This document shows, piece by piece, positions 581-61,465 of a DNA stretch of 64,000 bases. Numbering within the stretch: the stretch's first letter is position 1; the number at the start of each line of letters is the position of its first letter. Below the pieces are notes generated by a model. The model worked only from the letters and a program-made list of their open reading frames with translations. It did no database searches and was not told where the DNA came from. Location of the stretch: IMG/VR virus record IMGVR_UViG_3300021478_000002, positions 6,798 to 70,797 of that record. One strand, given 5' to 3'. This DNA is from a virus. The translations under genes and the position numbers were made by a program.

Positions 581-623
581 GGGCCTTGACGGGTAGGCCC
601 TAACCCCAAAGTGATAACATCCC
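581..623 (+). ncRNA. Candidate structured RNA motif (H-type pseudoknot), copy 1
   Basis: GGGCCT-loop-AGGCCC TAACCCCAAAGTGATAACATCCC; similar copies at 53024 and 53930. Confidence 0.55.
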
Positions 624-6866: not shown

Positions 6867-7352
6867 ATGGCTGCTTTTGAAACTCGCATCACCTACTCCA
6901 AGCTCTCGTTTTCGCCGATTGCGACCGAAGACATGGCGGCCATCGGCGGCATCGTGCTCGACCACATGAAGGCCCGCATCCAGGCGCATGTGGACTGGGA
7001 TGACAATCCCGCCAGACCGCTGAAGCCAAGCTACGCGCAGGAGAAGGTAAAGGGCAGGCGCGTGGCCTTGACCGGCGGGCAGCTTTTTCGCGGCCAACCC
7101 TTCCGCGATTGGACGCTGCGCGGGCGCACGATGCAATCGCTGAAAGTGAAATCGGTGTCTCAGGATCAGGTGACCATCGGGCCGGTCTCAGAGGAGGCCT
7201 CCAAGATCATCAACGCGCGCAATCCGCTCGATCATATGTGGGCGATGTCGCCGAGCGATACCGAGGTTCTGCACGAAGCCGTTTACAACACCATAATGCA
7301 GACCGTGCGCGTGCGACTCCAGCCGACCGGCGAAGTGAGGATGGTCGCCTAA
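6867..7352 (+). CDS. Virion morphogenesis/tail completion protein (HK97 gp10/Mu gpG-like)
   Basis: PLKPSYAQEK...DWTLRGRTMQSLKV motif; ATG at 6867 preferred to the ORF-track start. Confidence 0.6.
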   Translation: MAAFETRITYSKLSFSPIATEDMAAIGGIVLDHMKARIQAHVDWDDNPARPLKPSYAQEKVKGRRVALTGGQLFRGQPFRDWTLRGRTMQSLKVKSVSQDQVTIGPVSEEASKIINARNPLDHMWAMSPSDTEVLHEAVYNTIMQTVRVRLQPTGEVRMVA

Positions 7353-10300
7353 TGGGATCGTTTCCCTCCGATCTGACGATGAAGGTCAACATCGACCCTA
7401 CATCTGCCCTCGCGACTGCCAAAAAGATGGACGAATTGCTAAGGCAAGGCGCGAAGGGCGATGCCGAGGCATACAAGCAGGCCGCAGAGATGGGCATGAG
7501 CATGGCCAAGCAACTGATCAACACCAGCACGCGCGCCGGTCGCCAGCTCGAAACCCAGCTTCGGTCCATCGAGAAACAGACGCAGTCGCTGGGAAAGACT
7601 GCAACGGAGATGAATGAGCAGCAGCGGAGCTGGATGCTGGAGCGCGCACGCGGGTTAAAGAACCAGGAGGAGCAGGAAAAACGGATCAATGCGATCTACG
7701 ATCAGCGGCGGAAATATTTTCAAGAGGAGGAGCGCAGGCAGCAGCAGAAAGGTCCCGGCACCGGTGCCCTGCTCTTCCGTGGTGCGCGCGATATTTTCGA
7801 AGGCCGCATGAGCTACGGCATGATGGATCTCGGCAGGGCCGCGCTTGGCGGGATGGGGGGCGGGGGCGCAGCAGCGGGAGGGGCGGCGGCTGGCGCAGGA
7901 GCGGGCGGAGTTGGAGGCGTGCTCGCCGGAATCAGCGGTACTGCGCTCGCCATCGGCGGTGTGGCGGCGGCCCTGGTCGGCGTGGAAGTCGCCGGTTACG
8001 CCGCCGCCAAAGCTATCGGCGAGTTTGGCCGCGAAGTCCACGACGTGCAGATCAAGACGGGGATGACCGCCGTCGAAGTGCAGCGCCTTCAGTTCGCCGC
8101 CCAAGTCACCGGTCAGGACATCGGCATCGTGGATCGCATGATGCGCGGCCTCACCATGGCCATCGAAGGCACCGATAAGAAGGCCTTTGCCGCCGCCAAG
8201 ACTCTCCAGGACATGGGCGTTGATTTGGTGGCTTTGCAAAAGGGTGGGATCAAGCCGCTGGAGCTATTGCAGCAAATCTCCACCGCGCTTGAAAAGCAGC
8301 CCAACAAATGGCTGCAGAACAAGGAGGCCATGGATCTATTCGGTCGCTCTGGCATTCCGGCGCTGCCCATGATCACGGAGCTGAACCGAGCGCTGGGGGA
8401 AAGCGGAAAACTCCATTTCGTCGACCAGGACCAAATCGACCGATGGAGGGAGGGAAATGTCGAGATCGCGAGAATGGAGACCGAGCTGAAACTGATCAAG
8501 CTCCACCTGGAGGGACTGGTCGCCAAGCCATTCATCATCACCATCGATGTGGTGGGGAAGCTGGGCGATCTGTTGACGAAGGGTATGGGCCAGCAAGAAA
8601 AGTCGGGCCAGGAGCCGGATATACCGGAGGACTTGATCGGGCGCTTTCGTGCCGCCATGGGCGCGGAGAAGACAGCGGAGAGAGCGCCGTATGTCGCCGC
8701 GCAGCAATACGCGAAGGAATTGCAGAAAAACAGCTTGGAGGCGGCGGAGCAGGAGCTATCAGCGGCGAAAGAGGTCTACGACGAAGATCTGAAGAGAGCA
8801 GCCTTAGGCACGGTCATGATCGATCAGCTCAAGGAGCACGAGGCGATCTACAAGAGAATCAGAGATCACGTGGAAGCAATGAGAAAGGCTGATAGCGACC
8901 GGAAGGCCATCGCAGAAGCGCTGCGCCGCTCAATCCTGAATGCGGAGCAGCAGAGAGAGAATCCGTTCGCGCTCCCGGCGGAAGCAGCGTTGAATCGAGA
9001 TTTGAGGATGCACGGAATTACGCCAGCCGACGCATTCCGCTTCTCCTGGCACGCTGCGCCGCAGATTTTGTTTGAGCGCGGGCAACAGGCCGCCAAGTTT
9101 CAGACGGAGATGCTGGGCGTGCAGGAGACCACACAGCGCGAGCTGATGCGTGCGCGCCTGGGCGGCATCGAGCCGGTGAATGTCCGCGAGCTGGGCCAGG
9201 GCGGCGTCACGCGCGCCGACGTGGAGCATGACATCGTGGAGCAGTATCAGCAGCGCGTCGAAATCGCGAAGGAGACCCGCACTATCGAAGAGGACCTGAT
9301 CAACAAACGCAAGATCGACGCCAAAGATAATGTCGGATTGGCCCAGAAGGCACGTGACCTCGAAGCTGTTGCGGGCAAGGAGTTGGTCGCCAATGCAGAA
9401 GCCACAATGGCGATAAAGAAACAGGCGCACGCACTCGCCCAGAGAGAGCGAGATGAGGAGCGGAAGCATACAGAGACGATGTCGAGGATTCAGCTCGCCG
9501 ACCAGGAGGAGTCCATCAAGCACGACGCGGATCTGGCGCGGAAACAAGCCGAGCTACGCTTCAAGGGCGACAACCCGGCGGCGGGCATCGCCGAATCATA
9601 TCGAATCGCCGTGGAGGAGTCTCACCAGCTTTACGATCTGGAGATGCAGCGCATCGCCCTGCATGAAACCGGCTATAAGGCCGAAGAGGACGCTGCCATG
9701 GCTCTCCACAAATTGCACCGGGAGGATGAGGCCGCGCGCGAAGATGCCCAGCTCAAGCTGGCGCAGATGCAACAGCAACAACTCGACGCTCTGAAGAGCA
9801 AGATCGAGCCGCTCTACCACACGCTGTTCACGAACCCTAGGCAATTTGGCACGCAGCTTCGCCAGACGGTGCAGGAAGCTGCGCTGCACCCCATCGTGAG
9901 CGGCCTGAGCGAGATGACCGCCACGGCGCTGCACCCGCTCATTTACGGCGCGGGCGGCACGGGAGGGATCGCAGGTACTCTCGGCGGGATGTTCGGCGGC
10001 GGCAGGCTCAACGACGTCCACCTGATCAACGGCGCGGTGCCGGTTCACATCGTGGGCGCTGGTGGCGGCTTCGGCGGAGGAGGTGGTGGTTTCTTCGGCG
10101 GCGGCTACGGTGGTGGTGGTGGCGGCGGCCTGCCGAGCTTCGCGCAACTCGCGAACCTCCCGATGACCACCGGCTCATACGGCGGCATGGATTTCGGCGG
10201 GATGGCCCTGAGCAGTGCGCTTGGAGGCGGCGTCGGCACATCGCTTTATAACCTGCCAACCGGCGGCAGCTCTGGCATGAATTTTGGTGCCATGACCCTG

Positions 10301-11263
10301 GCGTCTGCCCTTGGCGGCGGTGGTACGGCCAGCGGCGGTCGCGGATTCAACCTGGGCGGCCTGGGCGGGCTCGCGCGTGGTCTGTCGGGCTGGAAACAGA
10401 TGCTCGGCTTCGGCGCGGTGCGCGGAAGCACTCCCGGCTCGGAGTCTCTGGCGCGGGCAGCCGAAGGCCCAGGTGTGAGCGCAGGGGGCGCATTCAGCCT
10501 GAGAGGCTTTGCTGGATCGCCACTGGCCAGAGCCGGAGCCATGACCGGCGGGATGATGGCAGCGCAATCCGGTCTGCTCGGACAGCAGCGTGGCACCGGC
10601 CTTGGTGTCCTGGAAGGCACGCTCGGCGGAGCCGCTATCGGGTTCTCCTTGGCTCCTCCCGGCTTCCAGCCATTGGGCGCTGCCATCGGCGCAGGTGTCG
10701 GCCTGGGGATCGGCTTGGGCGAGATGATCGCGGGCGTGGAATCGCCGCGCAATGAGGCCAAGCGGCTGGTGAGAAGTGTCTACCATATCTCGATCAACAA
10801 CACGACCGCCGACCAGATCGTTTCCATCGCCAACCAATCGTACAGCGGCCACGTCTCTATCGCGGTGCGCTCGCCCGAGGTGCGCCATATGCTGGGGCTC
10901 TACGCCGCCGGAACGGGCCAGGGGTCGATCTTCGCCCAGTCGTCGAACGAACCGCACGGAGCTTCGCTGGTGGAATCTGGCGGCATCCTTGCGCAGCAGG
11001 CGACCTATCAGTACGGGCAGGCATTCAGCCAAAGTTCGAACCTGCCGATCTATGGCGGCACGCCCACGCACGTGCTGGGGCCGCCGGGCGGCGGCATGCA
11101 GCTCTCGCTGAATATCGGCGGCCAGGATGCCGCGCGATTTTTGCAGGGGAACGTAGTGAGCCCTGATGTCGTGCAAGGACAATATGCGGCGGCCATGTAT
11201 GGTTCTTCCGGTCGAGTGTCGCAGAGTTTGATGATGTCGGAGCCCGGCAGTATCGCGTCTTGA
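7352..11263 (+). CDS. Tape measure protein
   Basis: About 1300 aa, helical Ala/Gln/Glu-rich with Gly-rich hydrophobic stretches; KTGMTAVEVQRLQFAA, AMDLFGRSG motifs; TAATG coupling at 7352. Confidence 0.92.
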   Translation: MGSFPSDLTMKVNIDPTSALATAKKMDELLRQGAKGDAEAYKQAAEMGMSMAKQLINTSTRAGRQLETQLRSIEKQTQSLGKTATEMNEQQRSWMLERARGLKNQEEQEKRINAIYDQRRKYFQEEERRQQQKGPGTGALLFRGARDIFEGRMSYGMMDLGRAALGGMGGGGAAAGGAAAGAGAGGVGGVLAGISGTALAIGGVAAALVGVEVAGYAAAKAIGEFGREVHDVQIKTGMTAVEVQRLQFAAQVTGQDIGIVDRMMRGLTMAIEGTDKKAFAAAKTLQDMGVDLVALQKGGIKPLELLQQISTALEKQPNKWLQNKEAMDLFGRSGIPALPMITELNRALGESGKLHFVDQDQIDRWREGNVEIARMETELKLIKLHLEGLVAKPFIITIDVVGKLGDLLTKGMGQQEKSGQEPDIPEDLIGRFRAAMGAEKTAERAPYVAAQQYAKELQKNSLEAAEQELSAAKEVYDEDLKRAALGTVMIDQLKEHEAIYKRIRDHVEAMRKADSDRKAIAEALRRSILNAEQQRENPFALPAEAALNRDLRMHGITPADAFRFSWHAAPQILFERGQQAAKFQTEMLGVQETTQRELMRARLGGIEPVNVRELGQGGVTRADVEHDIVEQYQQRVEIAKETRTIEEDLINKRKIDAKDNVGLAQKARDLEAVAGKELVANAEATMAIKKQAHALAQRERDEERKHTETMSRIQLADQEESIKHDADLARKQAELRFKGDNPAAGIAESYRIAVEESHQLYDLEMQRIALHETGYKAEEDAAMALHKLHREDEAAREDAQLKLAQMQQQQLDALKSKIEPLYHTLFTNPRQFGTQLRQTVQEAALHPIVSGLSEMTATALHPLIYGAGGTGGIAGTLGGMFGGGRLNDVHLINGAVPVHIVGAGGGFGGGGGGFFGGGYGGGGGGGLPSFAQLANLPMTTGSYGGMDFGGMALSSALGGGVGTSLYNLPTGGSSGMNFGAMTLASALGGGGTASGGRGFNLGGLGGLARGLSGWKQMLGFGAVRGSTPGSESLARAAEGPGVSAGGAFSLRGFAGSPLARAGAMTGGMMAAQSGLLGQQRGTGLGVLEGTLGGAAIGFSLAPPGFQPLGAAIGAGVGLGIGLGEMIAGVESPRNEAKRLVRSVYHISINNTTADQIVSIANQSYSGHVSIAVRSPEVRHMLGLYAAGTGQGSIFAQSSNEPHGASLVESGGILAQQATYQYGQAFSQSSNLPIYGGTPTHVLGPPGGGMQLSLNIGGQDAARFLQGNVVSPDVVQGQYAAAMYGSSGRVSQSLMMSEPGSIAS

Positions 11264-11290
11264 AGTTGCGTGATTTATGGGTGAGAATAT

Positions 11291-11355
11291 GGCAGGGCTA
11301 GGTAAGGCGAGGCGGGGCAGGGCTTGGCGAGGCCGGGCTCGGTCTGGCATGGCGT
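11291..11355 (+). repeat. GGYNN pentamer tract (13 units)
   Basis: ggcag ggcta ggtaa ggcga ggcgg ggcag ggctt ggcga ggccg ggctc ggtct ggcat ggcgt. Confidence 0.85.
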
Positions 11356-11376
11356 GGGCGTCAATGACGCAAGGGC

Positions 11377-11832
11377 ATGGCGGGTTCCGTCATGCCTTCT
11401 AACCTCTCGCCAGCGACGGTCGCGCCCGGCAATGTGCTGCCGCAGTCACTCTCTACCTCATTCGTGGAGACTCTAGTCTATCCGTTGCTCGCCGTCTCAT
11501 ATGCCGACGGCACTTTCGAGCGTTCGTTGATTGTGGATGGAGTCAATCCGCCGCGCGCGCTGCGCACCTGGGTCATGGCGAAGCGGCTGACGACGGCGCA
11601 GCTTACAACGTTGTTCAATTTCTGGACGACTCAGGCGGTCGGCGGTCTCAATGCGTTCTACTTCTACAATCCGGTCGATATACTGCCCGGCCAGCACATC
11701 GGCTCCAACTACGACCCGACCGGCAATAATACGCAGGGTCGTGTGATCTGCTTCTTCCGGGGCGACTGGGCGCAACGCACCGAGCTGGGACGCCACGCAG
11801 GGCCCAACCTAATGCTCATCGAGGTCGCGTGA
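11377..11832 (+). CDS. Distal/minor tail protein (gpM/DUF2460-like)
   Basis: Follows tape measure; LFNFW...GGLNAFYFYNP...LIEV pattern. Confidence 0.65.
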   Translation: MAGSVMPSNLSPATVAPGNVLPQSLSTSFVETLVYPLLAVSYADGTFERSLIVDGVNPPRALRTWVMAKRLTTAQLTTLFNFWTTQAVGGLNAFYFYNPVDILPGQHIGSNYDPTGNNTQGRVICFFRGDWAQRTELGRHAGPNLMLIEVA

Positions 11833-11833
11833 G

Positions 11834-14800
11834 ATGGCGGATCAAATCGGTCGCATCCCGGTGCCAGTCCCGGTCAGGTCGGGCGCTACCTTCACGCTGA
11901 AATCCGAGTATGGCTACGGCGTCACACAGGATTGGCGCGTTGTGGAACACCGCTTTGGCGAGTTGGCCACGCTCGGAGTGCAGCGATACGGCGTCGGCAG
12001 CGGCGCGCGCCATTTTCAGTGGGTCAAATCCTCCCTGAACTACGCCGACCGGCAGTATCTGCTCACCTTCTACAATCAGGTGCAGGGTTCGTATCAATCC
12101 TTCACATACCCGGTGCCCAACACCGACCGCTCGACATTCACCAACGTCGAGGTCATATTCGACACGCCGCCGATCTCCATCACGGATCTGGTCAACCGCG
12201 CGCAGACCGGCCTGACCTTCACGGAGATCGTTAGCCAGGGTGCCGCATATACCGGCACCGTCGGTGCGGTATGCAGCCGCTTCCCGTCCACGGCCCTGGC
12301 TGCGGCGCTCGCCAGCGAGGTCCAGATCATCATCCCGCTGATTCACATCAAGGTGCGCAACCCGGCTGTGCCTGACATCTACCTGTCCGACCGGCGCGTC
12401 AATATGGTCGGTTTTCCCGGCGCACCCAGCCCGGTGACGTTCCTGCCGCGCCTGCTGGGCGTGGGCGTACCGGGCACTCAAGACGTCATCATGTCGCAGT
12501 CTCTCGATGGCCGCTCCGATAACGTCAGGTTCACGCTCGGCAACGCGGACAGGGCGATGTCGCAGCTCGTCAACGACTGCTCACTGGAATACGCCTCCAT
12601 CGATATGAGCTTCTTCCACGTCGGCACCGGCATCCTGCTGCAGCTCTGGAAGGGCGTGGTCCTCTCGTGGCAAGCGGATGGATCGCCGCAGTTCAGCATG
12701 CAGTGCTCCGACGGTCTCTATCCCATCACCCAGGCATACCCGCCGCGCACCGTTAGCAGGCAGTGCTGGAAGCCGTTCAACGCGGATGTCGTGCCCGGCT
12801 ACCGGCCCTGCCCGTGGGCGACGGTCGGCGGCAACGTCGGCAATGCGACGTCCTGCGACTATTTCTTCAACTCGCCGAACGGCTGTCTCTCGCACGGCAT
12901 GTCGAACTACTTCGGCGGCCATCCCGAACAACCGCAGAACGTGGTGATCAAAGATAACGGCACCGGCATTATGGGCGGATTTTTCCGTTCGACGGTGACA
13001 TCAACCTCGATCCTGTCGGATAGCATCTGGGGCCAGCCGCTGCCGGAAATTTGGTGCAATTATTTCGGCTCGCCGCAGCGGGCCTTTTGGGCGAACTGTC
13101 AGATCGCCGCTGTTCGCGACGAGTCCGATTACATGGACTTGTTGGGGATTGTGGGCGCGGGACCTATCGGCGCTTTCGAAGGCATGAGCGTGCAGACCAA
13201 CAGCGACGGCTACAAATTTGTCGTGGCACCGACGGCGGATGGGTTCTTCCCACAAGGCTTCAAGGTGGACAGCCACCTCAATATCGCCAGCAACTACTAC
13301 CAGCTAGGCCTGGGCTTGCGTCAGTCGCTCGGCAACGATCCCGCACACTTGGCCACGGCCCCCACCGATGGCATCGATGCGTTCTCGCTCGGTCAGGGGT
13401 CGCCGCAGCACTGGGACGAGCCCGACCCGAATTGGAGCAACCTCGCCGGGCATCCGAATACCATCATTCCCTACGCGGCAGGCACGGCGCTCTGCGAGGT
13501 GCGCTATCCCAAGTCTGCCGGGACCGGCCTTGCGCCGACGACCGCCGAGAGTCATAGCATGCAGTGCCCGATCCGCTTCGGGTTGACCGGCAGCGTCTTC
13601 GATACGACCGGCGCGCGCACGCTCGTTTCCGGTCTGGTCAACCCCTTCTGGGTGGCCGCCAATTCTTATTTTCGGGCGCTGGGAATCCAGCATGCGGATG
13701 CCGCCACGCAACTCTCCTATCTGGTCCTCAGTTCGATCACCAACACGAGCGGCATGGGATGCGCGGATATCGCCGGGCAGTGGGTTGCCCCCGTCGTCGG
13801 CATGCAGGTGATTCCGACCTATGTCGTGACCACTGCGGGCCAAGCATTGGCACACTACAATCTCGATTTTTTCAATGGCAACTTCGGCACCTTTACTTAT
13901 CAGAACAGTTCCGGCACCGTCATAACGATGTCGCTCTCGGCAGCCCAAACAGCAGGCTACATCACCGTCGTCAGCCAGCCGAACCAAGAGCTGCAATTCG
14001 TGTTCCAGGGCAGCATCGCGGAATTCAAACCGTTCCGCGATTGGCTGACGGAGATTCTCAACTGTGCGTTGGGTTATTTTTGCTTCGAGTTCGGCCAGTT
14101 GAAAATGGGCATCCGCTACAGTGCGGTGCCGACCGATTCGTTCACCATCGGCTCGATGCTGTACCAGTCGCTGACCATCACGCCGATCCAGTCCCAGTTC
14201 GAATACCTGAAGATCACCTTCGCGAACGTGGAGCTGCAATACCAGCAGGATCTCGCGGAATACCAGGACAAGGACCACGCGATCTACTATGGCCGCGCCG
14301 GTACGCCGCTGACCAGCAACATGCGCTCCGTGGGCTGCTCCACGCTTTCGCAGGGTCTGCGGATCGCCGTCACGCGCACGCGCGAGGAGATCGGCGGCAT
14401 CCTGCGCAAGGACCTTGGAGACGCCCAGAAGTACATCGAGTGGGACAACCATAAGCGCGTGAGCTTCAAATCCACACTGCTCGCGCTCAACAACGAGATC
14501 GGGCAGGTGATTGGCATCCAGCATCCCGACCTGCCGACGTACCCCGGTGCCGTGCCGAATCCCAACAAGCCCGGCAACAACGGTCCCTTCCCCGCGCATA
14601 CGTGGCCGTTCCGCATCCAGAAGTGGATGCTCCACAGCGACTGGTCGGTCAGCATCCTGGCTGACTCGTGCGTGGATAGCATGTATGACCTGGACGTTGG
14701 TCCGCAACCCTTAGGCGTCGGCCCGCGCCCGCTGCCGGTGATGTTTTTCCCCGAGCCACTGGGTCAGTGGGCCCCGTATCAGGTGCAGGCCGATCCGGCG

Positions 14801-16060
14801 GATGCGCTCTACCCGAGCGAGTGGACGTTCAATTTGCAACAGACCTTCCAATACCAGGGAGACGGCGTGCTGCTTACCAGCGCCGTGGTCGCGGGCTGCC
14901 TGCCGGTCAATCAATTCGTGCCCGGCTGCGGCGCTCCTGACGTCAAGAAGGGCGATGTCTCATGGGCGACCACTGGCGGCAGCATTCCCGGCGGCACCAC
15001 CCTGTTCGTCCAGATCTGCGCGGCCATCGCGGACACGACGAACCCCGCGAACCCCGTGGTGACGCAATACAGCCCGCCGTCAGAGATCCTGGTGCTCCAG
15101 GTGCCGACCGGCACGAATACGAATACGCTGACGATCAATGATATCCAGTGGCCGACGGCGAGCGGCCTGAATGCCTGGGTGCTGTTTGCGAACACCGTCG
15201 AGGATCTGCTCTGCGGCCAGGAAGCCGCGCTCGGCCAGCCCGCGTCCATCACCTTCGCCGGGCCGGTGCTCCGGCAGACGTACGGCGTCCCTGACTTCGA
15301 CCTGAACATTCTGCGCCTGCGCGCCCAGGTGCTGATCCATGGCGGCGTGCTCGGCGCGGGCGTCGATGCGCTGACCAGCTCGCCACATACCATCACCAGC
15401 CACGCCACGATTGATCTCGCAGGCACGGACAACTGGGCGAATCGCGTGCTCGCCATCATTGGTCGCCAGCAGGGCAGCGGCATCGCCCCGTTCGCGCATT
15501 TCAACATCACGTCGTTCTCCCCGTCGATGGGCACGTTTACGCTGGACCGCGATCCCATAGCGGCGGGCGTGCAGGTAGGCGACATCTTCGTCGTGTGCTT
15601 CCTGGGCGCGGACAACGGCTCAAACCCGCATGTGGTCGGCGACCCCGGCCTGAGCAACGCGAACAATACTCCACCGCACACCGGCGAGCTGGTGAACGAC
15701 CCCAACCGCATTGGCCGCATGGTCCGCGTCATCAAAGGTACGAGCCGTGGGATGTCGGCGAAGATCGTCAGCAACGATACCACTAGCTACACGCTCGATC
15801 AGGCGCTGCCCATTGATACCACGAGCGTGTGGGTCGTCTGCGATCCCGGCTGGAATTATTCCAAGGACGTGATCGTTAACAATGCCGATCCCATGAAGGT
15901 CACGGCGTCGGCCATCGAAATCAACAATTACAAACGGCTCGCGCTGTTGGTGGAAGGCGTGACGATTGACAACGAGGCGCAGATTGTGGACGACGCCAAT
16001 GCGTGCGTCCGAATGCTTTTCATTCCCGGTGCGCAGGGCACCACCAACGTGACGACCTGA
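11834..16060 (+). CDS. Tail tip/hub protein (gpJ-like, multi-domain)
   Basis: 1408 aa; N-terminal gpM-like domain, Cys cluster (CWKPF...CPW...CDY...C..H) as in gpL-type proteins, FRDWLTEILNCALGY hub-like region. Confidence 0.75.
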   Translation: MADQIGRIPVPVPVRSGATFTLKSEYGYGVTQDWRVVEHRFGELATLGVQRYGVGSGARHFQWVKSSLNYADRQYLLTFYNQVQGSYQSFTYPVPNTDRSTFTNVEVIFDTPPISITDLVNRAQTGLTFTEIVSQGAAYTGTVGAVCSRFPSTALAAALASEVQIIIPLIHIKVRNPAVPDIYLSDRRVNMVGFPGAPSPVTFLPRLLGVGVPGTQDVIMSQSLDGRSDNVRFTLGNADRAMSQLVNDCSLEYASIDMSFFHVGTGILLQLWKGVVLSWQADGSPQFSMQCSDGLYPITQAYPPRTVSRQCWKPFNADVVPGYRPCPWATVGGNVGNATSCDYFFNSPNGCLSHGMSNYFGGHPEQPQNVVIKDNGTGIMGGFFRSTVTSTSILSDSIWGQPLPEIWCNYFGSPQRAFWANCQIAAVRDESDYMDLLGIVGAGPIGAFEGMSVQTNSDGYKFVVAPTADGFFPQGFKVDSHLNIASNYYQLGLGLRQSLGNDPAHLATAPTDGIDAFSLGQGSPQHWDEPDPNWSNLAGHPNTIIPYAAGTALCEVRYPKSAGTGLAPTTAESHSMQCPIRFGLTGSVFDTTGARTLVSGLVNPFWVAANSYFRALGIQHADAATQLSYLVLSSITNTSGMGCADIAGQWVAPVVGMQVIPTYVVTTAGQALAHYNLDFFNGNFGTFTYQNSSGTVITMSLSAAQTAGYITVVSQPNQELQFVFQGSIAEFKPFRDWLTEILNCALGYFCFEFGQLKMGIRYSAVPTDSFTIGSMLYQSLTITPIQSQFEYLKITFANVELQYQQDLAEYQDKDHAIYYGRAGTPLTSNMRSVGCSTLSQGLRIAVTRTREEIGGILRKDLGDAQKYIEWDNHKRVSFKSTLLALNNEIGQVIGIQHPDLPTYPGAVPNPNKPGNNGPFPAHTWPFRIQKWMLHSDWSVSILADSCVDSMYDLDVGPQPLGVGPRPLPVMFFPEPLGQWAPYQVQADPADALYPSEWTFNLQQTFQYQGDGVLLTSAVVAGCLPVNQFVPGCGAPDVKKGDVSWATTGGSIPGGTTLFVQICAAIADTTNPANPVVTQYSPPSEILVLQVPTGTNTNTLTINDIQWPTASGLNAWVLFANTVEDLLCGQEAALGQPASITFAGPVLRQTYGVPDFDLNILRLRAQVLIHGGVLGAGVDALTSSPHTITSHATIDLAGTDNWANRVLAIIGRQQGSGIAPFAHFNITSFSPSMGTFTLDRDPIAAGVQVGDIFVVCFLGADNGSNPHVVGDPGLSNANNTPPHTGELVNDPNRIGRMVRVIKGTSRGMSAKIVSNDTTSYTLDQALPIDTTSVWVVCDPGWNYSKDVIVNNADPMKVTASAIEINNYKRLALLVEGVTIDNEAQIVDDANACVRMLFIPGAQGTTNVTT

Positions 16061-16061
16061 C

Positions 16062-19000
16062 ATGAGCACCGATTACACCGTTAAGATCACCGACAGGCTC
16101 CTGCGCTTCGACACGACCAACGACGACGTCCTCCTTACGCTCCTGCCCTTCAAACAGACCCCGAATGCGCCCTACGAAATCCACCGCATCAGCAAGGGCG
16201 ACGGGCACACCGTCACGATTCGCGTCGATCCATCGACCACAGATTTTCTCCTGCCCGACCGCAGCACGACGATCTTACTGACCGATGCGAATCCGACGGC
16301 GATGATCCGCATCCCGGCAGACGGTGCTTCTCCGGCCTTCGTCGCCCAAGGCGGCGGCAGCGGTGGTGGTGGCGGCGGCGGCACGGATACAATCATTGGG
16401 CCGGTCACCGGCTTCACGAGCGCAGGCGAGGTGGGCACCCGCTACGCCAGCGATCCCGACCGGCTCGTGCATCTGACCATCGGGTTCGTGCCGATCTCTC
16501 CGGTGCCGCAGCCGATCACCTACTTCGTCAGCGCCGACGATGGCGCGCACTGGACCTGGATCGGGTCGCAGCGCATGCAGGCGACCGGCCAGCAGCTCCT
16601 GGTGGACCGGCTGGCTCCAGGCGCGACGTCGACGTGGATGATGGCGGCGGTCGCGGGCAACCTGGGAGGCGATCCCTCACCTATCCTGGACGCCAACCTG
16701 AGCACGCTCTATGCGGGCGTCGTTCGGTCCAGTTCGTTCCCGGTGCTCGGCCTGACAGCGCCTGCTGCCTCGACCGGGATCACGGCCACCATCGGCACCC
16801 AGCAAAATGTGGTCTCAGCGGATGGCTTCACACAGTATGGTGTGATTACCGGCGTCTCCTACAACGGCGGGATTGTCGGCATGGTCTACACGGACCCGGT
16901 CGGCACGAGCAATTTTTTCGTGCGTATCACGTCTCAGATTTTGGACTCCTCTCGCAATTCGCTGGCAGCGGAAGCGCCGCACGGAGGAACGCTGATTACC
17001 GGGGGATCGCACTCCGAACCACCCCATCTCATTACCTACGTGCCCGGCTTGGCGTTCGTTCGCTACCGGTTTTACTTGGCGAATCGGAACTCACAAGGCG
17101 GCGGCGACTTCTCCGACGCGAGCACCAACACGTTACAGATGGTCAGCTACAACAGCGCCGCGCCCGCCGACCACTATGACGTCCCGATCACCATCCCGCC
17201 ATTCACGCCGATCAACCCCGACACCGCTTTCAACGTCACCTCAGTCACGGCGTCCGAAGTGGGGCCGAAATACCAGGACACCCAGCAGGGCCTGCACACC
17301 ACTATCGGCGTGGTCCCGGTCATCGACCATGACTACAGCAGCCCGCGCACGGTCACGATCTGGTTCGATTTCGGAACCGGGAACCCGGTGTGGCAGGGCT
17401 GGTACTCATTGTCCAACCAGGGGCAGGTGGTCCGCATCGGAGACTCCACGCTGGGCACCGACGGCGTTCGCAAATCGGGCAACATTTGGGTTCCCGCAAA
17501 CGCCGGTCAGGGCAACTGGATTTGCTACTGCGGCGCGGGCCACCTCGACAACGGCACCAATCCCAACGCATACAAGTCGTGCAATTTTACGGTGGTGCCG
17601 GTGGCCCCCTGCTTGCCCAACGGCGTCACCAACGCACAATTTCTTCCCAATCCGGCGACCAGCGACCCTATCGATTACAGCAAATACGATCCCGGCATCT
17701 GGTTTTGGGAATATTACTGCCTGACGTTCCAGCCGCCGACCCTGGCGTTCGACCCGAACTACTGGTTCACGCTCGTCACAATTCAAAAAGGCGGAATCAT
17801 CGGCGGCGTGTGGACCCAAGCCCCCGACTCTGAGGGTATCAACGCGGACCCGCACCTTAACTTTTTGGGCAGGGTGCATGCGGAGATCAACCAGCTTCCC
17901 GGCGTCAGCGGCGGCCAGATTAGCATCCTGAAAAAGTTCGGTGCTAACCCTGCGACCTGGAACATCCCGCCAGCGCAGAACGAAGACCTGACTCCGAATC
18001 CTTACCGGACCTTTCGCTTCTGGCTGTACAACGTGAGCAGGCTGGGCACGGACACAAGCGGCAGCGGCGGCGCTGGCACCTACACGTTGCAGACGTCCTG
18101 CTGGCCCGGCGGTGCGGATCACTTCGATCTGACGCCGGTGCCGAAGAACAGTTCGCTTGATTTCCGCGCTGCGAACCCGGCGACGATCACCGCTCCGCTC
18201 ACCGGCGGCAACGGCCAGCCGCTGACAATCCCGCCGTACGATGCGGGGAGCGGGACGGGCGGAATTGGTGTCGGATATCTGGGGCCTCAGTCGGTCCATG
18301 CGATCAACATGGCTAAGGACTCCATCACCGCAGCCAATCAGGCGCTGGCGGCAAGCTCGGTGGTAGATCCGAACCTCGTGAGCATGGGCATCAACAAGGT
18401 CACCTACGGCACCAGCATATTCGCGGGCGATGTGGTTCTCAGCCGGGGCATCAGCCTGCCCGTGATCATTCTGAAAAATACCGGGATCTTTTTGTACGGG
18501 CAGGCAGATGCTTCAACTGGCGCTTCCGGCCTACTCAGCAAGCCCTACGTCGGCATTCAGAATAATGCGATTGGACTCTTTCAGGGAGGTACGGGAACAG
18601 CATCAAATTCGGGGCCGGGAACAGGCGGCTCAGTCTTTCTCGACGCGGCGAACGCTGCGATCACGATCTACAGCACAAACGGTGATATCACCAAGCCCTA
18701 CCTCACGGTGAATTCAGCGGGAATCATGATCGTGAACGGCGTGAACAGCTTCGCCGTCAACAGCAATGCGATGGTGTTTCTCGACACCGGGAATAAAAAC
18801 CGGATCGACATCAATTCGGCTGGGATCACCCTGTCGAATAAGATCAACGCTGACGGTACGATCCCCACTACAGCCAATCAACTGGTGATGCTCTCCACCG
18901 GGCTACAGTTCACGATTGCTCAGGTTGCACAGATCACGGTCCACCAGACGAATGGCATCACCCTCTCAAACGGCGGCACCAGCAGCGTCGTGGTCACCAA

Positions 19001-19682
19001 TGCCAATGTCACGATTACCGCATCGGGCGCGCAGGCGACGTTCAGCAGCAACCAGATTCAGATGATACAAGGTGCCGCGACCGTGACGATCACCGCCGCC
19101 TCGCTCAAACTTTCCAACGGCACCAGCAGCGTGGAAGTCACCTCCAGTAACGTCACGATTACCAACGGAAGCCTGACCGCTGCAACGATTAACGGCGGCT
19201 CGCTGACCATCACGACCAGTCAGGGAATCGTCTCAATCACTCCCTCAACGAGCGGCGTCCAGGTGTCGGGCAACGGAGGAGTCGATCTCACTCACCTTGG
19301 CTCCAGTGTCATTTCGATTTACACCGGGTCACCAACCTACGGCTCTGAATTGTCGCCAACCACGCTGCTTGTGGGGCGGTTCGGCACCAGCCCTATTCTC
19401 ACTATTGGTCTAAATGCGAATGACGGCTCGATGAAGATCGGCAACAAGACTGTGATTGACGCGAACCAAGTGTGGCGGGAAAGCGTGCAGTGTACCGACC
19501 ATATTTTCGGCAATGATTTTGGGATCTCTGGCGTTGCCGTAGGGTGGCCGCAGACCTCGACGTCCGCAGGTAATCCAGGCGGCCCAGGCCCAGGCGCTGC
19601 TCAGGGGGCTGTATATAGCTTCGCCACCGGGGCAGGCAAAACCGTTTATGTTTGCGGCGGTCTTATCCTCAACGTAGTGTAG
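16062..19682 (+). CDS. Tail/receptor-binding protein with C-terminal beta-repeat region
   Basis: 1206 aa; internal duplication (EVGTRY/EVGPKY); Ser/Thr/Ile/Asn beta repeats. Confidence 0.7.
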   Translation: MSTDYTVKITDRLLRFDTTNDDVLLTLLPFKQTPNAPYEIHRISKGDGHTVTIRVDPSTTDFLLPDRSTTILLTDANPTAMIRIPADGASPAFVAQGGGSGGGGGGGTDTIIGPVTGFTSAGEVGTRYASDPDRLVHLTIGFVPISPVPQPITYFVSADDGAHWTWIGSQRMQATGQQLLVDRLAPGATSTWMMAAVAGNLGGDPSPILDANLSTLYAGVVRSSSFPVLGLTAPAASTGITATIGTQQNVVSADGFTQYGVITGVSYNGGIVGMVYTDPVGTSNFFVRITSQILDSSRNSLAAEAPHGGTLITGGSHSEPPHLITYVPGLAFVRYRFYLANRNSQGGGDFSDASTNTLQMVSYNSAAPADHYDVPITIPPFTPINPDTAFNVTSVTASEVGPKYQDTQQGLHTTIGVVPVIDHDYSSPRTVTIWFDFGTGNPVWQGWYSLSNQGQVVRIGDSTLGTDGVRKSGNIWVPANAGQGNWICYCGAGHLDNGTNPNAYKSCNFTVVPVAPCLPNGVTNAQFLPNPATSDPIDYSKYDPGIWFWEYYCLTFQPPTLAFDPNYWFTLVTIQKGGIIGGVWTQAPDSEGINADPHLNFLGRVHAEINQLPGVSGGQISILKKFGANPATWNIPPAQNEDLTPNPYRTFRFWLYNVSRLGTDTSGSGGAGTYTLQTSCWPGGADHFDLTPVPKNSSLDFRAANPATITAPLTGGNGQPLTIPPYDAGSGTGGIGVGYLGPQSVHAINMAKDSITAANQALAASSVVDPNLVSMGINKVTYGTSIFAGDVVLSRGISLPVIILKNTGIFLYGQADASTGASGLLSKPYVGIQNNAIGLFQGGTGTASNSGPGTGGSVFLDAANAAITIYSTNGDITKPYLTVNSAGIMIVNGVNSFAVNSNAMVFLDTGNKNRIDINSAGITLSNKINADGTIPTTANQLVMLSTGLQFTIAQVAQITVHQTNGITLSNGGTSSVVVTNANVTITASGAQATFSSNQIQMIQGAATVTITAASLKLSNGTSSVEVTSSNVTITNGSLTAATINGGSLTITTSQGIVSITPSTSGVQVSGNGGVDLTHLGSSVISIYTGSPTYGSELSPTTLLVGRFGTSPILTIGLNANDGSMKIGNKTVIDANQVWRESVQCTDHIFGNDFGISGVAVGWPQTSTSAGNPGGPGPGAAQGAVYSFATGAGKTVYVCGGLILNVV

Positions 19683-51958: not shown

Positions 51959-52011
51959 TTCACCCTTTGCGGTTGACAACTGCATGCGATGGTCCGTATA
52001 TTGTGAATATG
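51959..52011 (+). promoter_or_regulatory. Leaderless-type promoter, TTCACCC family
   Basis: TTCACCCT-6-TTGACA-18-TATATT-6-ATG. Confidence 0.75.
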
Positions 52012-52913: not shown

Positions 52914-53023
52914 CTGGCCTTCCAGGCCCGTGGCGGGCTTCCTAGTGTGACAGCGGGCCATTCTACGCGCTGTAACCCAACTTTGCCTTGCTTGTGGCGA
53001 CGTCGCGGGCTTACTATGCGTGT

Positions 53024-53064
53024 GGGCCGCCGGGACGGCCCTAACCCAAAAGCAATAGCATCCC
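53024..53064 (+). ncRNA. Candidate pseudoknot RNA motif, copy 2
   Basis: GGGCCG CCGGGA CGGCCC TAACCCAAAAGCAATAGCATCCC. Confidence 0.55.
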
Positions 53065-53116
53065 GTTCCCCCCTAACGGCACACACAGCAAATTTAGAGA
53101 ATAGGAGAGCTTTGTC

Positions 53117-53800
53117 ATGGGTTTCCAACGTTTTATAGGCTTTGCATGGGTTCCAGGTCCCGGCGAGCCGACTGATCCAGGATTCGGCGGCGGCATTCCC
53201 GCACCGCCCGATCCAGGCTGGGGGATTGGCAGTGGCCTGCATCCTTCGCATGGGCTGCCGGGCGGCGGGCACATCAGCACCGGGCCGATCTATCCCGGCG
53301 GGCATCCCGGCAATAAGCCTCCGGGGCGGCCCATCGTTCCTCCGCATCCCGGCCAACGACCGCCGATGGGCGGCGCTCCGCCGCATCCGTGGCTTCCCGG
53401 TCACTGGGACATCATCGATCCCGGCTGGGGCAAACCGCCGTTGATCGGATTTTTGCCGGTCGATCCCGGCTGGGGCGTTGACACTGGGACCGGACCCGAT
53501 CAGGGCCTGCCGCCGACCGGAGCGCCTCCGGTGGCGGGAATGCCGCTACCTCCGACCGGCGCACCTCCGGCACCGGGCCAGGGTCTGCCAGGGACACCGC
53601 CCACGAAGCCGCCGGTTGTCGGCGGCGGCCCGATCACGGGTCCTGGTGGTGGTGTCTGGGTGCCCGTCGATCCCGATTGGGGAGTGCCCGGCTGTCCCGG
53701 TGGCAAACCGCATCCGCCCATCTGGGCGTGGATTCCCGCGCCGCCTGATCTGAGCAAGCCGGTGCCGGTGCCGCCCGAACCTGCGCCCGCGCCGAAGTAG
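53117..53800 (+). CDS. Pro/Gly-rich low-complexity protein with DPG(W/F)G repeats
   Basis: AGGAG RBS; DPGFG, DPGWG x3, DPDWG. Confidence 0.7.
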   Translation: MGFQRFIGFAWVPGPGEPTDPGFGGGIPAPPDPGWGIGSGLHPSHGLPGGGHISTGPIYPGGHPGNKPPGRPIVPPHPGQRPPMGGAPPHPWLPGHWDIIDPGWGKPPLIGFLPVDPGWGVDTGTGPDQGLPPTGAPPVAGMPLPPTGAPPAPGQGLPGTPPTKPPVVGGGPITGPGGGVWVPVDPDWGVPGCPGGKPHPPIWAWIPAPPDLSKPVPVPPEPAPAPK

Positions 53801-53929
53801 TCGTTCAACGAGTTGGCGAGGCAGGAGCTGGCCGCCGGATGCTTCCCGGTCCTGCGTCCAGGCCGTCGACCTGCCTCGCCATTGCATGTGCGCGGCGCTT
53901 GGACTATGATTGGGACGTCTTTCGCCGCC

Positions 53930-53972
53930 GGGCCGCTGGGACAAGGCCCTGACCCCGAAGTGATAACATCCC
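53930..53972 (+). ncRNA. Candidate pseudoknot RNA motif, copy 3
   Basis: GGGCC GCTGGGACAA GGCCC TGACCCCGAAGTGATAACATCCC. Confidence 0.55.
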
Positions 53973-54130
53973 ACTCAGTTTTTACCGTATCGCCGCCACA
54001 GCGACTAGCCCTCGCGTCCACGGCGGCGTTCCCACTCCATGTGTAGCCGCTTAACCTTGCCGGGGTGGGGCAACACGGGGCAGCTTTCATTACGGGCTGC
54101 CCCGTTCCAACTCCGTTAAGGAGAAGACCT

Positions 54131-54295
54131 ATGACGATATCAGTCCTGTTTCTGGTGATCGCAATCGTGCTCTTCGCGCTCGGTTCCTGGAGCCGCTGGT
54201 GGGCCACCCAGCAGCAAGCCTACTACCCGACCTTCGTCTGCGGCGGCCTGTTCTTCTGGGCCCTCTCCCAGCTCTGGCCGATGCTCGCCAAGTAA
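54131..54295 (+). CDS. Small two-TM membrane protein (possible holin)
   Basis: AAGGAG RBS; two hydrophobic helices in 54 aa. Confidence 0.55.
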   Translation: MTISVLFLVIAIVLFALGSWSRWWATQQQAYYPTFVCGGLFFWALSQLWPMLAK

Positions 54296-57119: not shown

Positions 57120-57440
57120 GTGATGCCAATGTTCCGGCTGGTAAAAACACTCGACACCGCCGAGCCCGCCTACTTCCTGCTGTGCGATCACCGGCAATGC
57201 ATGGAAGCCCGGCGCGGCAACGCCGTGGTGTCGAACAGCGATGACTATCAACTCAGCAAGCGCACGTTTCTGAAGGCCGCCATTGCGGAAGGCTGGTGGG
57301 TGGATCTCGAAGGTGCGTTTTGTCCACCGCATGCGCGCGAGATGCTACACGCCGCGCGTGAAATCATCGAGAAGGGCAAGCAGGTGGTGGAGGCGGCGCG
57401 GCCTGAGCAGATCCTGGCCTTTGGAAAGGGACGAGTATGA
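57120..57440 (+). CDS. Hypothetical Zn-binding protein
   Basis: CDH..C...GW....FCP.H. Confidence 0.6.
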   Translation: MMPMFRLVKTLDTAEPAYFLLCDHRQCMEARRGNAVVSNSDDYQLSKRTFLKAAIAEGWWVDLEGAFCPPHAREMLHAAREIIEKGKQVVEAARPEQILAFGKGRV

Positions 57441-58000
57441 AGAAAGCACCGCCTGCAACCAAGGTCGTGCAAGTGGGCGTCAACGCGCTGGCGCGTGAAG
57501 TCGGTCTGACGCCGACCACCATCAGTAAGAAACTGAAGCAAGGCCAGACGCCTGAACAGATCCGCCGCGATGCCGCGCGCAGGCAGGGCCGTGAGCCATC
57601 GCCGACAGGTACGCCCCCAAGCCGGGGCCGCGCGCCGGTGGGTCAACCACCCCGCTCCGAGTACGACATGGTCATCAAGGGCCGCGAGCGCCTGGACAAC
57701 ATCGATGAAGCCAAGCTGCGCCGGGCGCGTGCGCTGGCCGAGCGCGGCGAGCTGGACAACATGCTCAAGCGCGGCGAACTGATTCCGGTCGCGCACGTGC
57801 GCCAGTGGGGCTCGCGATTCCTGACCGATGCCCGCGACACACTCATGGCGGGTCCAAGCGAATTACAGGACACGCTGGCTGCCGAAGATGACCCGCTGAA
57901 AGTGCAGGCGATCTTGCGCGCGTGGCTGGAGCGTGTGATGGCCAAGTTCCATCAATGCGAACGGCTGTGGGGCATTGGCGACGAAGAGCAGGTGGCGTGA
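57437..58000 (+). CDS. Terminase small subunit
   Basis: N-terminal HTH (NALAREVGLTPTTISK); A...EL......GELIP motif of Nu1-like proteins; upstream of large subunit. Confidence 0.75.
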   Translation: MKKAPPATKVVQVGVNALAREVGLTPTTISKKLKQGQTPEQIRRDAARRQGREPSPTGTPPSRGRAPVGQPPRSEYDMVIKGRERLDNIDEAKLRRARALAERGELDNMLKRGELIPVAHVRQWGSRFLTDARDTLMAGPSELQDTLAAEDDPLKVQAILRAWLERVMAKFHQCERLWGIGDEEQVA

Positions 58001-61123: not shown

Positions 61124-61465
61124 ATGCCCAGCACGGCCAATCTTGCCATCTATCAGGGCGACGATTTTGCCGCCGTCGTGACCGTCACCAATGGCACTCC
61201 AACACCACCGGACCTGACCGGCTGCCTGCCGCAGGCGCAGATCCGCTTGGGGCCCGCTGATTCCAATCCGACGGTCGTGGTCGAGATCGCCGCCGCTTTG
61301 AATCCGCCGAACCTGATCAACCTGACCATTCCCCATTCCGTCACAAAAATGCTCGAAGGACAGTATGCGTGGGATCTTCAGCTCACCGATCCCACCGGCC
61401 TGATCGCCACGATCCTGGCAGGCACGGTAATCGTGACCGCCGAAATTACGCGGGAAGGCCCATAA
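61124..61465 (+). CDS. BppU-N-like fibre adaptor protein
   Basis: IYQGDDF...DLTG...AQIR...WDLQLTD...ILAGTV.V..EITR. Confidence 0.7.

Follow-up and report, generated by a model that had tools for sequence, protein, structure and literature searches.

A covarying pseudoknot in the leaders of packaging, capsid and other operons of soil phages, probably a fold-dependent on/off element for late genes

How late genes are timed and driven in tailed phages outside the classic models is mostly unknown. The question is raised by a window of 64,000 nucleotides (nt), bases 6798-70797 of the 70,797-bp phage record IMGVR_UViG_3300021478_000002 (direct terminal repeats, completeness 100), whose + strand carries all clear genes. 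An earlier note on this window had described three dispersed copies of an intergenic motif folding as a pseudoknot and had read them as an undescribed cis-acting phage RNA. We asked what this RNA is, where else it occurs and what it could do at the head of phage operons. The answer begins with a compact and well-supported RNA structure at the predicted first transcribed bases of packaging and capsid operons in otherwise dissimilar soil phages, which we propose to be probably a fold-dependent on/off element for late genes.

The pseudoknot, its copies and its covariation

All 45 copies collected in this work share an H-type pseudoknot of about 45 nt. Its first helix (P1) is a hairpin of 5-7 pairs around a GGCC core, with 6-14 nt between the two arms. 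The loop of this hairpin (GGGA) pairs with the 3' tail (UCCC) to form P2, and loop 3, of 19-22 nt, contains a two-pair mini-hairpin of the form G-Y-GAUA-R-C (P3), which the earlier note had missed.

The three copies in the window are real, and all of them are intergenic, on the + strand and sense to the next gene. Copy 1 (581-626; 51.2 bits with the covariance model) lies in the leader of the major capsid gene, with P1 formed by 581-586 and 595-600, P2 by 590-593 and 621-624, and P3 by G611-C618 and U612-A617 within loop 3 (601-620). Copy 2 (53024-53065; 46.3 bits) pairs 53024-53029 with 53036-53041 in P1, 53031-53035 with 53061-53065 in P2, and G53052-C53059 and C53053-G53058 in P3. The corresponding pairs of copy 3 (53930-53974; 52.3 bits) are 53930-53934 with 53945-53949, 53937-53941 with 53970-53974, and G53960-C53967 with U53961-A53966. 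The complementarity between loop and tail is as first described, namely CGGG/CCCG in copy 1, CGGGA/TCCCG in copy 2 and TGGGA/TCCCA in copy 3, so that P2 of copy 3 has U-A at the position of C-G in the other two. The sixth pair of P1 is likewise T-A in copy 1 and G-C in copy 2, and the same position is an unpaired G/A in copy 3. The start codons follow at about 90 nt (capsid), 50 nt (a Pro-rich open reading frame, ORF) and 157 nt (a hydrophobic ORF), close to the distances given before.

These three places stand out from the rest of the sequence. The pattern GGGCC-N5-14-GGCCCTRACCC has three matches in the window, compared with a mean of 0.00 in 100 dinucleotide shuffles, none of which reached three, and a degenerate 23-nt word for loop 3, with up to 3 mismatches allowed, finds the same three places only. 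In the whole 70,797-bp genome there are three forward and no reverse matches, and the pattern written backwards, used as a control, gives none. A covariance-model search of the window at E <= 1 detected no fourth copy.

Relatives were then collected from other sequences. Of 15 loci anchored on capsid-protein homologues, and thus chosen independently of the motif, 12 have the element ahead of the capsid gene, and the remaining three have no intergenic gap at that place. A looser pattern was scanned as well and gave 61 loci in viral contigs, 17 in bacterial and archaeal genomes (one genome per species, 185,579 genomes covered) and 39 in metagenome contigs; the presence of the hairpin cleanly divides true copies from chance matches. 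Only two of the 17 species-genome matches are real, one on a 40-kb contig binned as Terriglobales and one on a 55-kb contig binned as Burkholderiales, and both contigs look like binned phage genomes. The covariance model, R1, was built from 14 copies and detects 45 distinct ones at E <= 0.01 in 42 sources (viral contigs, metagenome contigs and contigs of metagenome-assembled genomes). A further scan, anchored on the hairpin and open to copies with another loop 3, returned 70 loci and a single new copy, L203, whose P3 loop is longer by a 1-nt insertion; the remaining new sequences of that scan are chance matches. Near-complete genomes carry three copies (G000 and G002) or one (G001, G003, G004 and G005), and the motif-bearing phages, of 37-71 kb, have few proteins in common. 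Among GenBank phages, blastn did not find the motif and gave chance matches inside genes or nothing.

P1, P2 and P3 covary in the 45 copies. The outer pair of P1 is GC in 23 copies, AU in 11, GU in 7 and CG in 2, and is unpaired in 2; one of its core pairs is CG in 42, UG in 2 and UA in 1; the sixth pair is UA in 11, AU in 5, GC in 4, GU in 2, CG and UG in one each, and unpaired in 21. Of the three core pairs of P2, the outer two are GC in all 45 copies and the middle one is GC in 41, CG in 3 and AC in 1, while the next pair is CG in 29, UG in 11, UA in 3 and unpaired in 2, and the first pair is AU in 29 and UU in 16. The Y/R pair of P3 is never broken (UA 27, CG 18). Its two positions were free in the scan pattern, and they are Watson-Crick complementary in 44/44 family copies versus 19/40 pattern hits outside the family.

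No single alignment held P1 and P2 together. MAFFT and both covariance-model alignments misregister the capsid-type loop, GACGGGU being placed one column off the GUGGGAC type. P2 was counted by an anchored script with a fitted register, and the permutation control refits this register each time: none of 2000 permutations of the tails reached the observed total helix length, and neither did any of 2000 loop shuffles. For P1 and P3, 99.0% of the cells are paired in the model alignment, which had been fitted to these two helices, against 92.4 ± 0.7% in shuffles; none of 500 shuffles reached their covariation score, and controls with slid partners were 13-55% paired. RNAalifold run on a plain MAFFT alignment of the 16 capsid leaders also finds P1. 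Finally, G-U cells number 20 and A-C cells 4, which argues for an RNA of the sense strand rather than for the opposite strand or a duplex DNA site. The homologues thus covary in P1 and between loop and tail, as a pseudoknot of the kind first proposed would.

A few variants and candidates deserve mention. L031:3404-3502 consists of two direct tandem knots, and the same sequence is present in L033, in L035 and in G002:18217-18315 (minus strand). The second knot of the tandem in L031, counted among the 45 copies, is divergent, with GGUC/GACC in P1, GAAG in place of GAUA in the P3 loop and one A-C mismatch in P2. Two sequences with a GGCCC/GGGCC hairpin, the loop-3 core and a CGCG tail, L087:5754-5806 (from a Cupriavidus-binned genome) and L115:11147-11199 (from a metagenome), score about 20 bits and are spanned by an ORF on the opposite strand; we set them aside as probable chance matches, but they might instead be a distant bacterial or prophage relative. 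A group of the form AGGAGGAATGCC...AAGTAATAGC was rejected as coding, since, as checked on L027, an 807-codon frame of the opposite strand covers it.

Promoters, downstream genes and pairings of the leader

Most copies outside the capsid leaders follow a predicted promoter of host type at a short distance. Among the 27 non-capsid copies with enough upstream sequence, 25 have the pattern NTGNNN-N16-18-TANNNT ending 4-32 nt before P1, compared with 32 of 2250 random positions from the same loci. Fourteen copies have a gap of 6-7 nt between this sigma-70-like promoter and P1, nine have one of 15-19 nt, and the last two have 23 and 27 nt; typical forms are TTGCGC-N17/18-TACGAT and GTGACA-N17-TAGAAT. 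With a gap of 6-7 nt, these 14 copies would be transcribed from the first paired base of P1, a purine. Within the window, the promoter of copy 2 (52988-53017, + strand) consists of TTGCTT (52988-52993), an 18-nt spacer and TACTAT (53012-53017), the latter ending 6 nt before P1, and that of copy 3 (53882-53910, + strand) of TTGCAT (53882-53887), a 17-nt spacer and TATGAT (53905-53910), ending 19 nt before P1. For the 16 capsid-type copies, copy 1 included, no credible promoter was found, the six pattern hits being weak and overlapping the end of the upstream gene. The best sigma-70-like site of the late-proximal region as a whole, TTGACA-N18-TATATT at 51973-52002 (+ strand, 11/12 matches), has no motif downstream.

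In a soil metatranscriptome, two perfect 151-nt pieces (53030-53180 and 53182-53332) are all that matches the 7 kb examined. Together they begin six bases into copy 2, extend into the gene for the Pro-rich protein and are compatible with a start at about 53024, but they may be one read pair or carried-over DNA and we do not count them as evidence.

Wherever the downstream gene can be called (41/45 copies), the motif is sense to it, and the random orientation expected of a DNA site is thus not what we see. The next gene encodes the capsid protein in 16 copies, the small terminase subunit terS (phrog_57) in 7, with the AUG about 21-24 nt past the tail, and a Pro-rich protein in 5; two small protein families without hits follow 4 copies each, and the downstream genes are of at least six kinds. 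The tandem pair of G002 and L031 precedes a 73-amino-acid (aa) basic protein, which by eye looks like a ribbon-helix-helix protein, and then a homologue of RecE-like exonucleases, so that the motif is not confined to late operons. Each of the six near-complete genomes has a copy ahead of terS/terL, at 3.5-4.4 kb in G000, 21 nt in G001 and about 0.9 kb in G004; the assignment for G002 and G005 is an inference read across contig ends, and that for G003 rests on BLAST clusters.

Two of the protein families found after the motif are worth describing. A Pro/Gly-rich protein of 150-230 aa, without Pfam or PHROG match, comes first after the motif in five phage contigs (window 53117-53800, L024, L026, L067 and L077). 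A family of 49-94 aa with the signature ...RIG-P-G...GV-F-R... directly follows it in L028:452-736, L075:9585-9848, L046:4197-4346 and L053:9874-10059, and could be a late regulator; its L075 member gave no PHROG or Pfam match and its L046 member no PHROG match.

What the leader may do further downstream differs between the gene types. In all seven terS-type leaders, GUGAUAACAUCCCG, which comprises P3 and the 3' strand of P2, has its complement in an arm further downstream, the end of which is 1-3 nt short of the terS AUG. This arm differs between phages yet stays complementary, and the alternative helix and the knot are mutually exclusive. For the five terS leaders whose start was given by the ORF caller, the duplex with their own ribosome-binding site (RBS) window is predicted at -17.9 to -22.4 kcal/mol, against a background mean of about -9 kcal/mol, and none of 95 other phage RBS windows is as good. 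In the window, loop 3 and the tail of copy 2 would pair with the RBS and AUG of their own gene (about 53093-53122) at -16.7 kcal/mol, a value matched by 2 of 95 background sites; in the predicted fold, UGGGUU at the AUG is taken up by AACCCA, and GGA in the Shine-Dalgarno sequence by UCC.

The capsid leaders have another arrangement. All 16 of them contain a second hairpin, 3-14 nt past the tail, of the form (GA)GACGCAC-loop-GUGCGYC(UU), which shows compensatory changes and is predicted by RNAalifold on the plain MAFFT alignment. After copy 1 it spans 632-657 on the + strand, with a core of 636-640 paired with 647-651, extendable to 632-655, and a U run at 654-657. A third conserved hairpin, CGGUC...GGCCG, is located between this one and the capsid RBS, at 660-715 in the window and at the same place in L004-L019; it was seen by eye and not predicted by RNAalifold.

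A proposed leader switch and the alternatives to it

In summary, no more than about 25 nt separate the knot from the predicted 5' ends of transcripts made from host-type promoters, those of packaging and morphogenesis operons and sometimes of others. From this position and from the pairings described above we infer, tentatively, that the motif is a phage-specific 5'-leader RNA that acts in cis through its fold, as a switch stabilised by an effector. The folded knot would be the ON state, in which the conserved 3' half (GYGAUARCAUCCC) is kept from competing pairings. In terS leaders, a knot left unformed would release this 3' half to pair downstream and occlude the translation start. In capsid leaders, the folded knot could favour read-through of the hairpin that follows, either sterically or via RNA polymerase, a step that is in line with the suppression of adjacent terminators by upstream structures reported in a preprint (10.64898/2026.06.17.733018). 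The partner that stabilises the knot would have to be common to the hosts; possible candidates are the polymerase that transcribes the leader, some other host factor and a small ligand. Loop 3 is strongly conserved, and a BLASTP comparison (E 1e-5, ORFs of at least 60 aa, crude ORF caller) found no protein cluster in all six motif-bearing genomes; together these point to a host-side partner or a ligand. The widest clusters, of the tail fibre, the RecE-like exonuclease and the replication initiator, reach 5/6 genomes.

The functions proposed in the earlier note, which ran from a stabiliser and a translational operator to an antiterminator and a self-cleaving element, are narrowed accordingly in one respect: promoter proximity, pairing with the RBS and the following hairpin favour a leader acting on translation or antitermination. 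The plain stabiliser and the ribozyme are neither favoured nor dropped. It is possible, if doubtful, that the motif represents a new phage-only effector-binding leader RNA, either the second known polymerase-reprogramming RNA after put or the first riboswitch-like sensor that serves to switch on packaging and capsid genes; either way its outputs would be modular, some leaders using RBS occlusion and others a terminator hairpin. If binding of the polymerase or of a ligand were true, it would constitute a new RNA-based control of late genes and a portable regulatory part of about 45 nt. Even as a stabiliser only, the motif would mark promoters and operon starts in phage genomes that otherwise cannot be annotated. 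Synthetic leaders allow testing without phage culture.

Several observations weigh against an effector-stabilised switch. Strong pairing with the RBS is limited to the terS-type leaders and copy 2 of the window, and the homologue of copy 2 in L077 lacks it (86/95 background sites are as good). It is not above background in the Pro-rich, Ig-like and small-protein leaders, and it is mild in the capsid leaders (median rank about 16 of 95). Outside terS-type leaders, downstream segments complementary to the 3' half of the knot occur within the range of controls. The U tract of the second hairpin is poor (CCUUUU or UUUACC, with 0-4 T in the first 8 bases after the longest stem); the hairpin is terminator-like but weak, and may not terminate. 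Moreover, a hairpin of 5 bp or more lies near only 10/28 non-capsid copies, in one case the P1 of a tandem copy, and hairpins of at least 6 bp are present in 175/900 controls. Terminator-like sites in the late region number 14 versus 11.4 ± 4.0 and 9 versus 13.1 ± 3.6 in shuffles. The spacers between knot and hairpin, of 3-14 nt, are mostly longer than the 0-4 nt tested in the preprint cited above, and the U tract is weak by comparison. Because the GGCC in the 3' strand of P1, the core of loop 3 and most of the tail were required by the scan pattern, part of their invariance across the family follows from how it was collected. To our knowledge, a phage-confined riboswitch ahead of structural genes has no precedent, and the effector, its binding and the regulation proposed here are all putative.

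One would then wonder whether the nascent RNA acts on the polymerase itself. The knot, with or without the second hairpin, could bind host RNA polymerase and make it resist pausing and termination along a long operon, as a processive antiterminator of the put kind, with no protein factor and no alternation between ON and OFF. The promoter-proximal position would be explained, as would the presence of 1-3 copies per genome at the heads of different operons, one of which is apparently early (the small protein followed by the RecE-like exonuclease in G002). The lack of a phage protein common to all six genomes agrees with it too, as do the two-element layout of knot and second hairpin, of about 80 nt, and a conserved -10-like TA(A/G)CAT on the non-template strand inside the element. 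But we found no likeness to put in sequence or structure, 18/28 non-capsid copies lack the second hairpin, and terminator-like sites downstream are not in excess. Capsid-type copies, although no promoter lies near them, conserve the -10-like word just as well, and such a model does not need the RBS pairing seen in 7/7 terS leaders. We regard it as rather unlikely. A more modest proposal is that the knot, placed at a primary 5' end or, for capsid transcripts, at a processed one, blocks decay that depends on the 5' end and so raises the yield of late proteins. It is known that 5'-terminal stem-loops stabilise Escherichia coli mRNAs, and in 14/25 promoter-linked copies the -10 element ends 6-7 nt before P1, which makes the first base a paired purine. 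U-rich unpaired stretches before the capsid-type copies could, in our own reading, be cleavage sites. The other 11/25 promoter-linked copies would begin with about 8-20 unpaired nt, a mere barrier needs neither an invariant 12 nt of loop 3 nor a covarying 2-bp mini-hairpin, and the RBS pairing would be left unexplained; we judge this proposal improbable.

The conserved single-stranded nucleotides and the small exposed hairpin loop GAUA could also be read by a protein. An RNA-binding protein encoded by the phage and recognising loop 3 and P3, in the manner of gene 32 or of N and nut, would have phage precedents in the T4 gene 32 operator and in lambda N-boxB, and possible candidates are the small conserved ORFs without assigned function that directly follow copies in L028, L075, L046 and L053. 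The absence of a shared protein cluster in the BLASTP comparison argues against this, autoregulation by the product is made unlikely by the variety of downstream genes (capsid, terS, Pro-rich and others), and the part of loop 3 equivalent to boxA is, in our comparison, variable. An operator of this type seems quite improbable. Still less can be said for a small self-cleaving ribozyme processing late transcripts, which we hold to be very improbable. Many small ribozymes are associated with phages, the motif is compact, a knot of about 45-50 nt whose unpaired nucleotides hardly vary, and the metatranscriptome pieces start within copy 2, at 53030; as evidence this start is very weak, since the two 151-nt pieces may be one read pair or library DNA. 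There is no candidate cleavage site, and the Rfam ribozyme models, among them pistol, twister, hatchet, hammerhead and HDV-like, give nothing at E <= 10 at the motif positions. Lastly, the element could act as double-stranded DNA, being an operator, a pac site or a promoter element with an extended -10 (TG-n-TAACAT), since it is promoter-proximal and near terS, P1 is an inverted repeat and TAACAT/TAGCAT resembles a -10 hexamer. A DNA site would hardly be expected to tolerate P1 arms spaced by 6-14 nt while three nested or interleaved helices covary, nor the excess of G-U over A-C cells, since a G-U cell read on the other strand becomes a mismatch. Furthermore, every copy is sense to the downstream gene, and the terS arm varies while staying complementary. 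We hold a site of this nature to be barely credible. Readings of the motif as a sigma-54 promoter, an extracytoplasmic function (ECF) sigma promoter or a CsrA site were dropped after comparison by eye with consensus sequences.

Relation to known RNAs and surrounding genes

Is this RNA already known under another name? At the gathering threshold, Rfam 15 has no match in the 64-kb window, and at E <= 10 two scans gave 5 and 7 weak matches, none over a motif copy, in agreement with the failure of the earlier note to place the motif in a known class. Literature searches on phage RNA motifs and antitermination turned up no description of it. A catalogue of 8,495 anonymous candidate RNA models from IMG/VR, comprising intergenic, covarying phage RNAs (PMC10690425), describes in its accessible part no leader pseudoknot of capsid or terminase genes, but the motif may stand unnamed in it. 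The word undescribed, as applied to the motif at the outset, thus holds for Rfam and GenBank phages and with this caveat for the catalogue. As a cis-regulatory leader pseudoknot the motif is of a known kind, with the possibility of a new effector class.

A parallel can be drawn with the put RNA of phage HK022. This RNA binds the zinc-binding domain of the beta-prime subunit and suppresses termination without protein factors. According to PMC9378689, putL lies just downstream of PL and has about 70 nt in two stem-loops. Its stem I contains a triplex, and sigma-dependent pausing is proposed to result from a conserved -10-like sequence that it carries. Like put so described, our motif is a cis RNA borne by phages downstream of host-type promoters, in few copies at the heads of long operons, with no dedicated phage protein needed; put has two structured elements, with tertiary (triplex) contacts in the first, and its -10-like word recalls the TA(A/G)CAT of loop 3, which is however part of our scan pattern. 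On the other hand, put is described there as two long stem-loops of about 70 nt without a pseudoknot, whereas the motif is a 45-nt pseudoknot with an optional hairpin; put serves early operons of an enterobacterial lambdoid phage, and the motif packaging and late operons of uncultured soil phages. Model R1 reaches at most 8.7 bits (E 1.2) on the HK022 genome, a comparison made by model only and not by alignment to put. Judged from sequence, the motif is not a put homologue.

The architecture also recalls small riboswitch aptamers. In preQ1-I, SAM-II, guanidine-III and fluoride riboswitches a short hairpin has a loop that pairs with the 3' tail, a purine-rich loop 3 is able to lie in the P1 groove, and a conserved core is joined to variable platforms overlapping the 3' strand, as in the terS leaders. 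By contrast, no Rfam riboswitch model matches the motif, its loop 3 has a mini-hairpin of its own, it is found in phage contigs only, and the genes downstream are structural, not metabolic. With respect to what generally marks a riboswitch, the motif has the covarying structured core and lacks the association with genes for ligand metabolism. The operator of gene 32 in T4 and T2 is likewise a 5'-terminal H-type pseudoknot in a phage leader tied to translational control, but it serves one gene and is read by the product of that gene, whereas the motif precedes at least six gene kinds; a single-strand-binding-protein gene was not found after any copy.

For the capsid leaders, another parallel may be the tug-of-war riboswitches. 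According to the preprint 10.64898/2026.06.17.733018, stable structures 0-4 nt upstream of a terminator suppress termination. The 16 capsid leaders resemble them in having a stable tertiary structure just upstream of a terminator-like hairpin without overlap, and differ in that the natural examples given there are ZTP riboswitches of Gram-positive bacteria. Two further systems differ from the motif. In comparison with lambda nut, the boxA-equivalent part of loop 3 is variable and no common small protein was found by BLASTP; in comparison with type III antitoxins of the ToxI kind, copies are single except for the tandem pair of L031, and no toxin-like gene lies downstream.

The major capsid gene downstream of copy 1 (716-1798, + strand) belongs to phrog_1005 (E 5.7e-71), its nearest cultured relatives are only about 41% identical, and megablast of 20 kb of window DNA returned no match. 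Copy 2 precedes the Pro-rich protein gene (53117-53800, + strand), which has no Pfam or PHROG family match, and copy 3 the ORF for the 54-aa hydrophobic protein (54131-54295, + strand), for which family searches gave no match either. The packaging module follows these two copies, with a terS-like gene at 57437-58000 and terL, the large terminase subunit gene, at 58607-60664, both on the + strand. Other genes of the window encode a tail fibre, RecE/RecT-like proteins, an HNH-helicase and a serine-recombinase-like protein. Three consecutive ORFs of 1,384, 1,408 and 1,206 aa, at 7109-19682, have no Pfam or PHROG match. Among the relatives, a tRNA gene (59 bits) is present at L116:1391-1464, minus strand, about 340 nt upstream of a motif copy and on the same strand as it. 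At the far end of the window, a large ORF (61369-63999) that runs past the window end contains collagen triple-helix repeats (PF01391).

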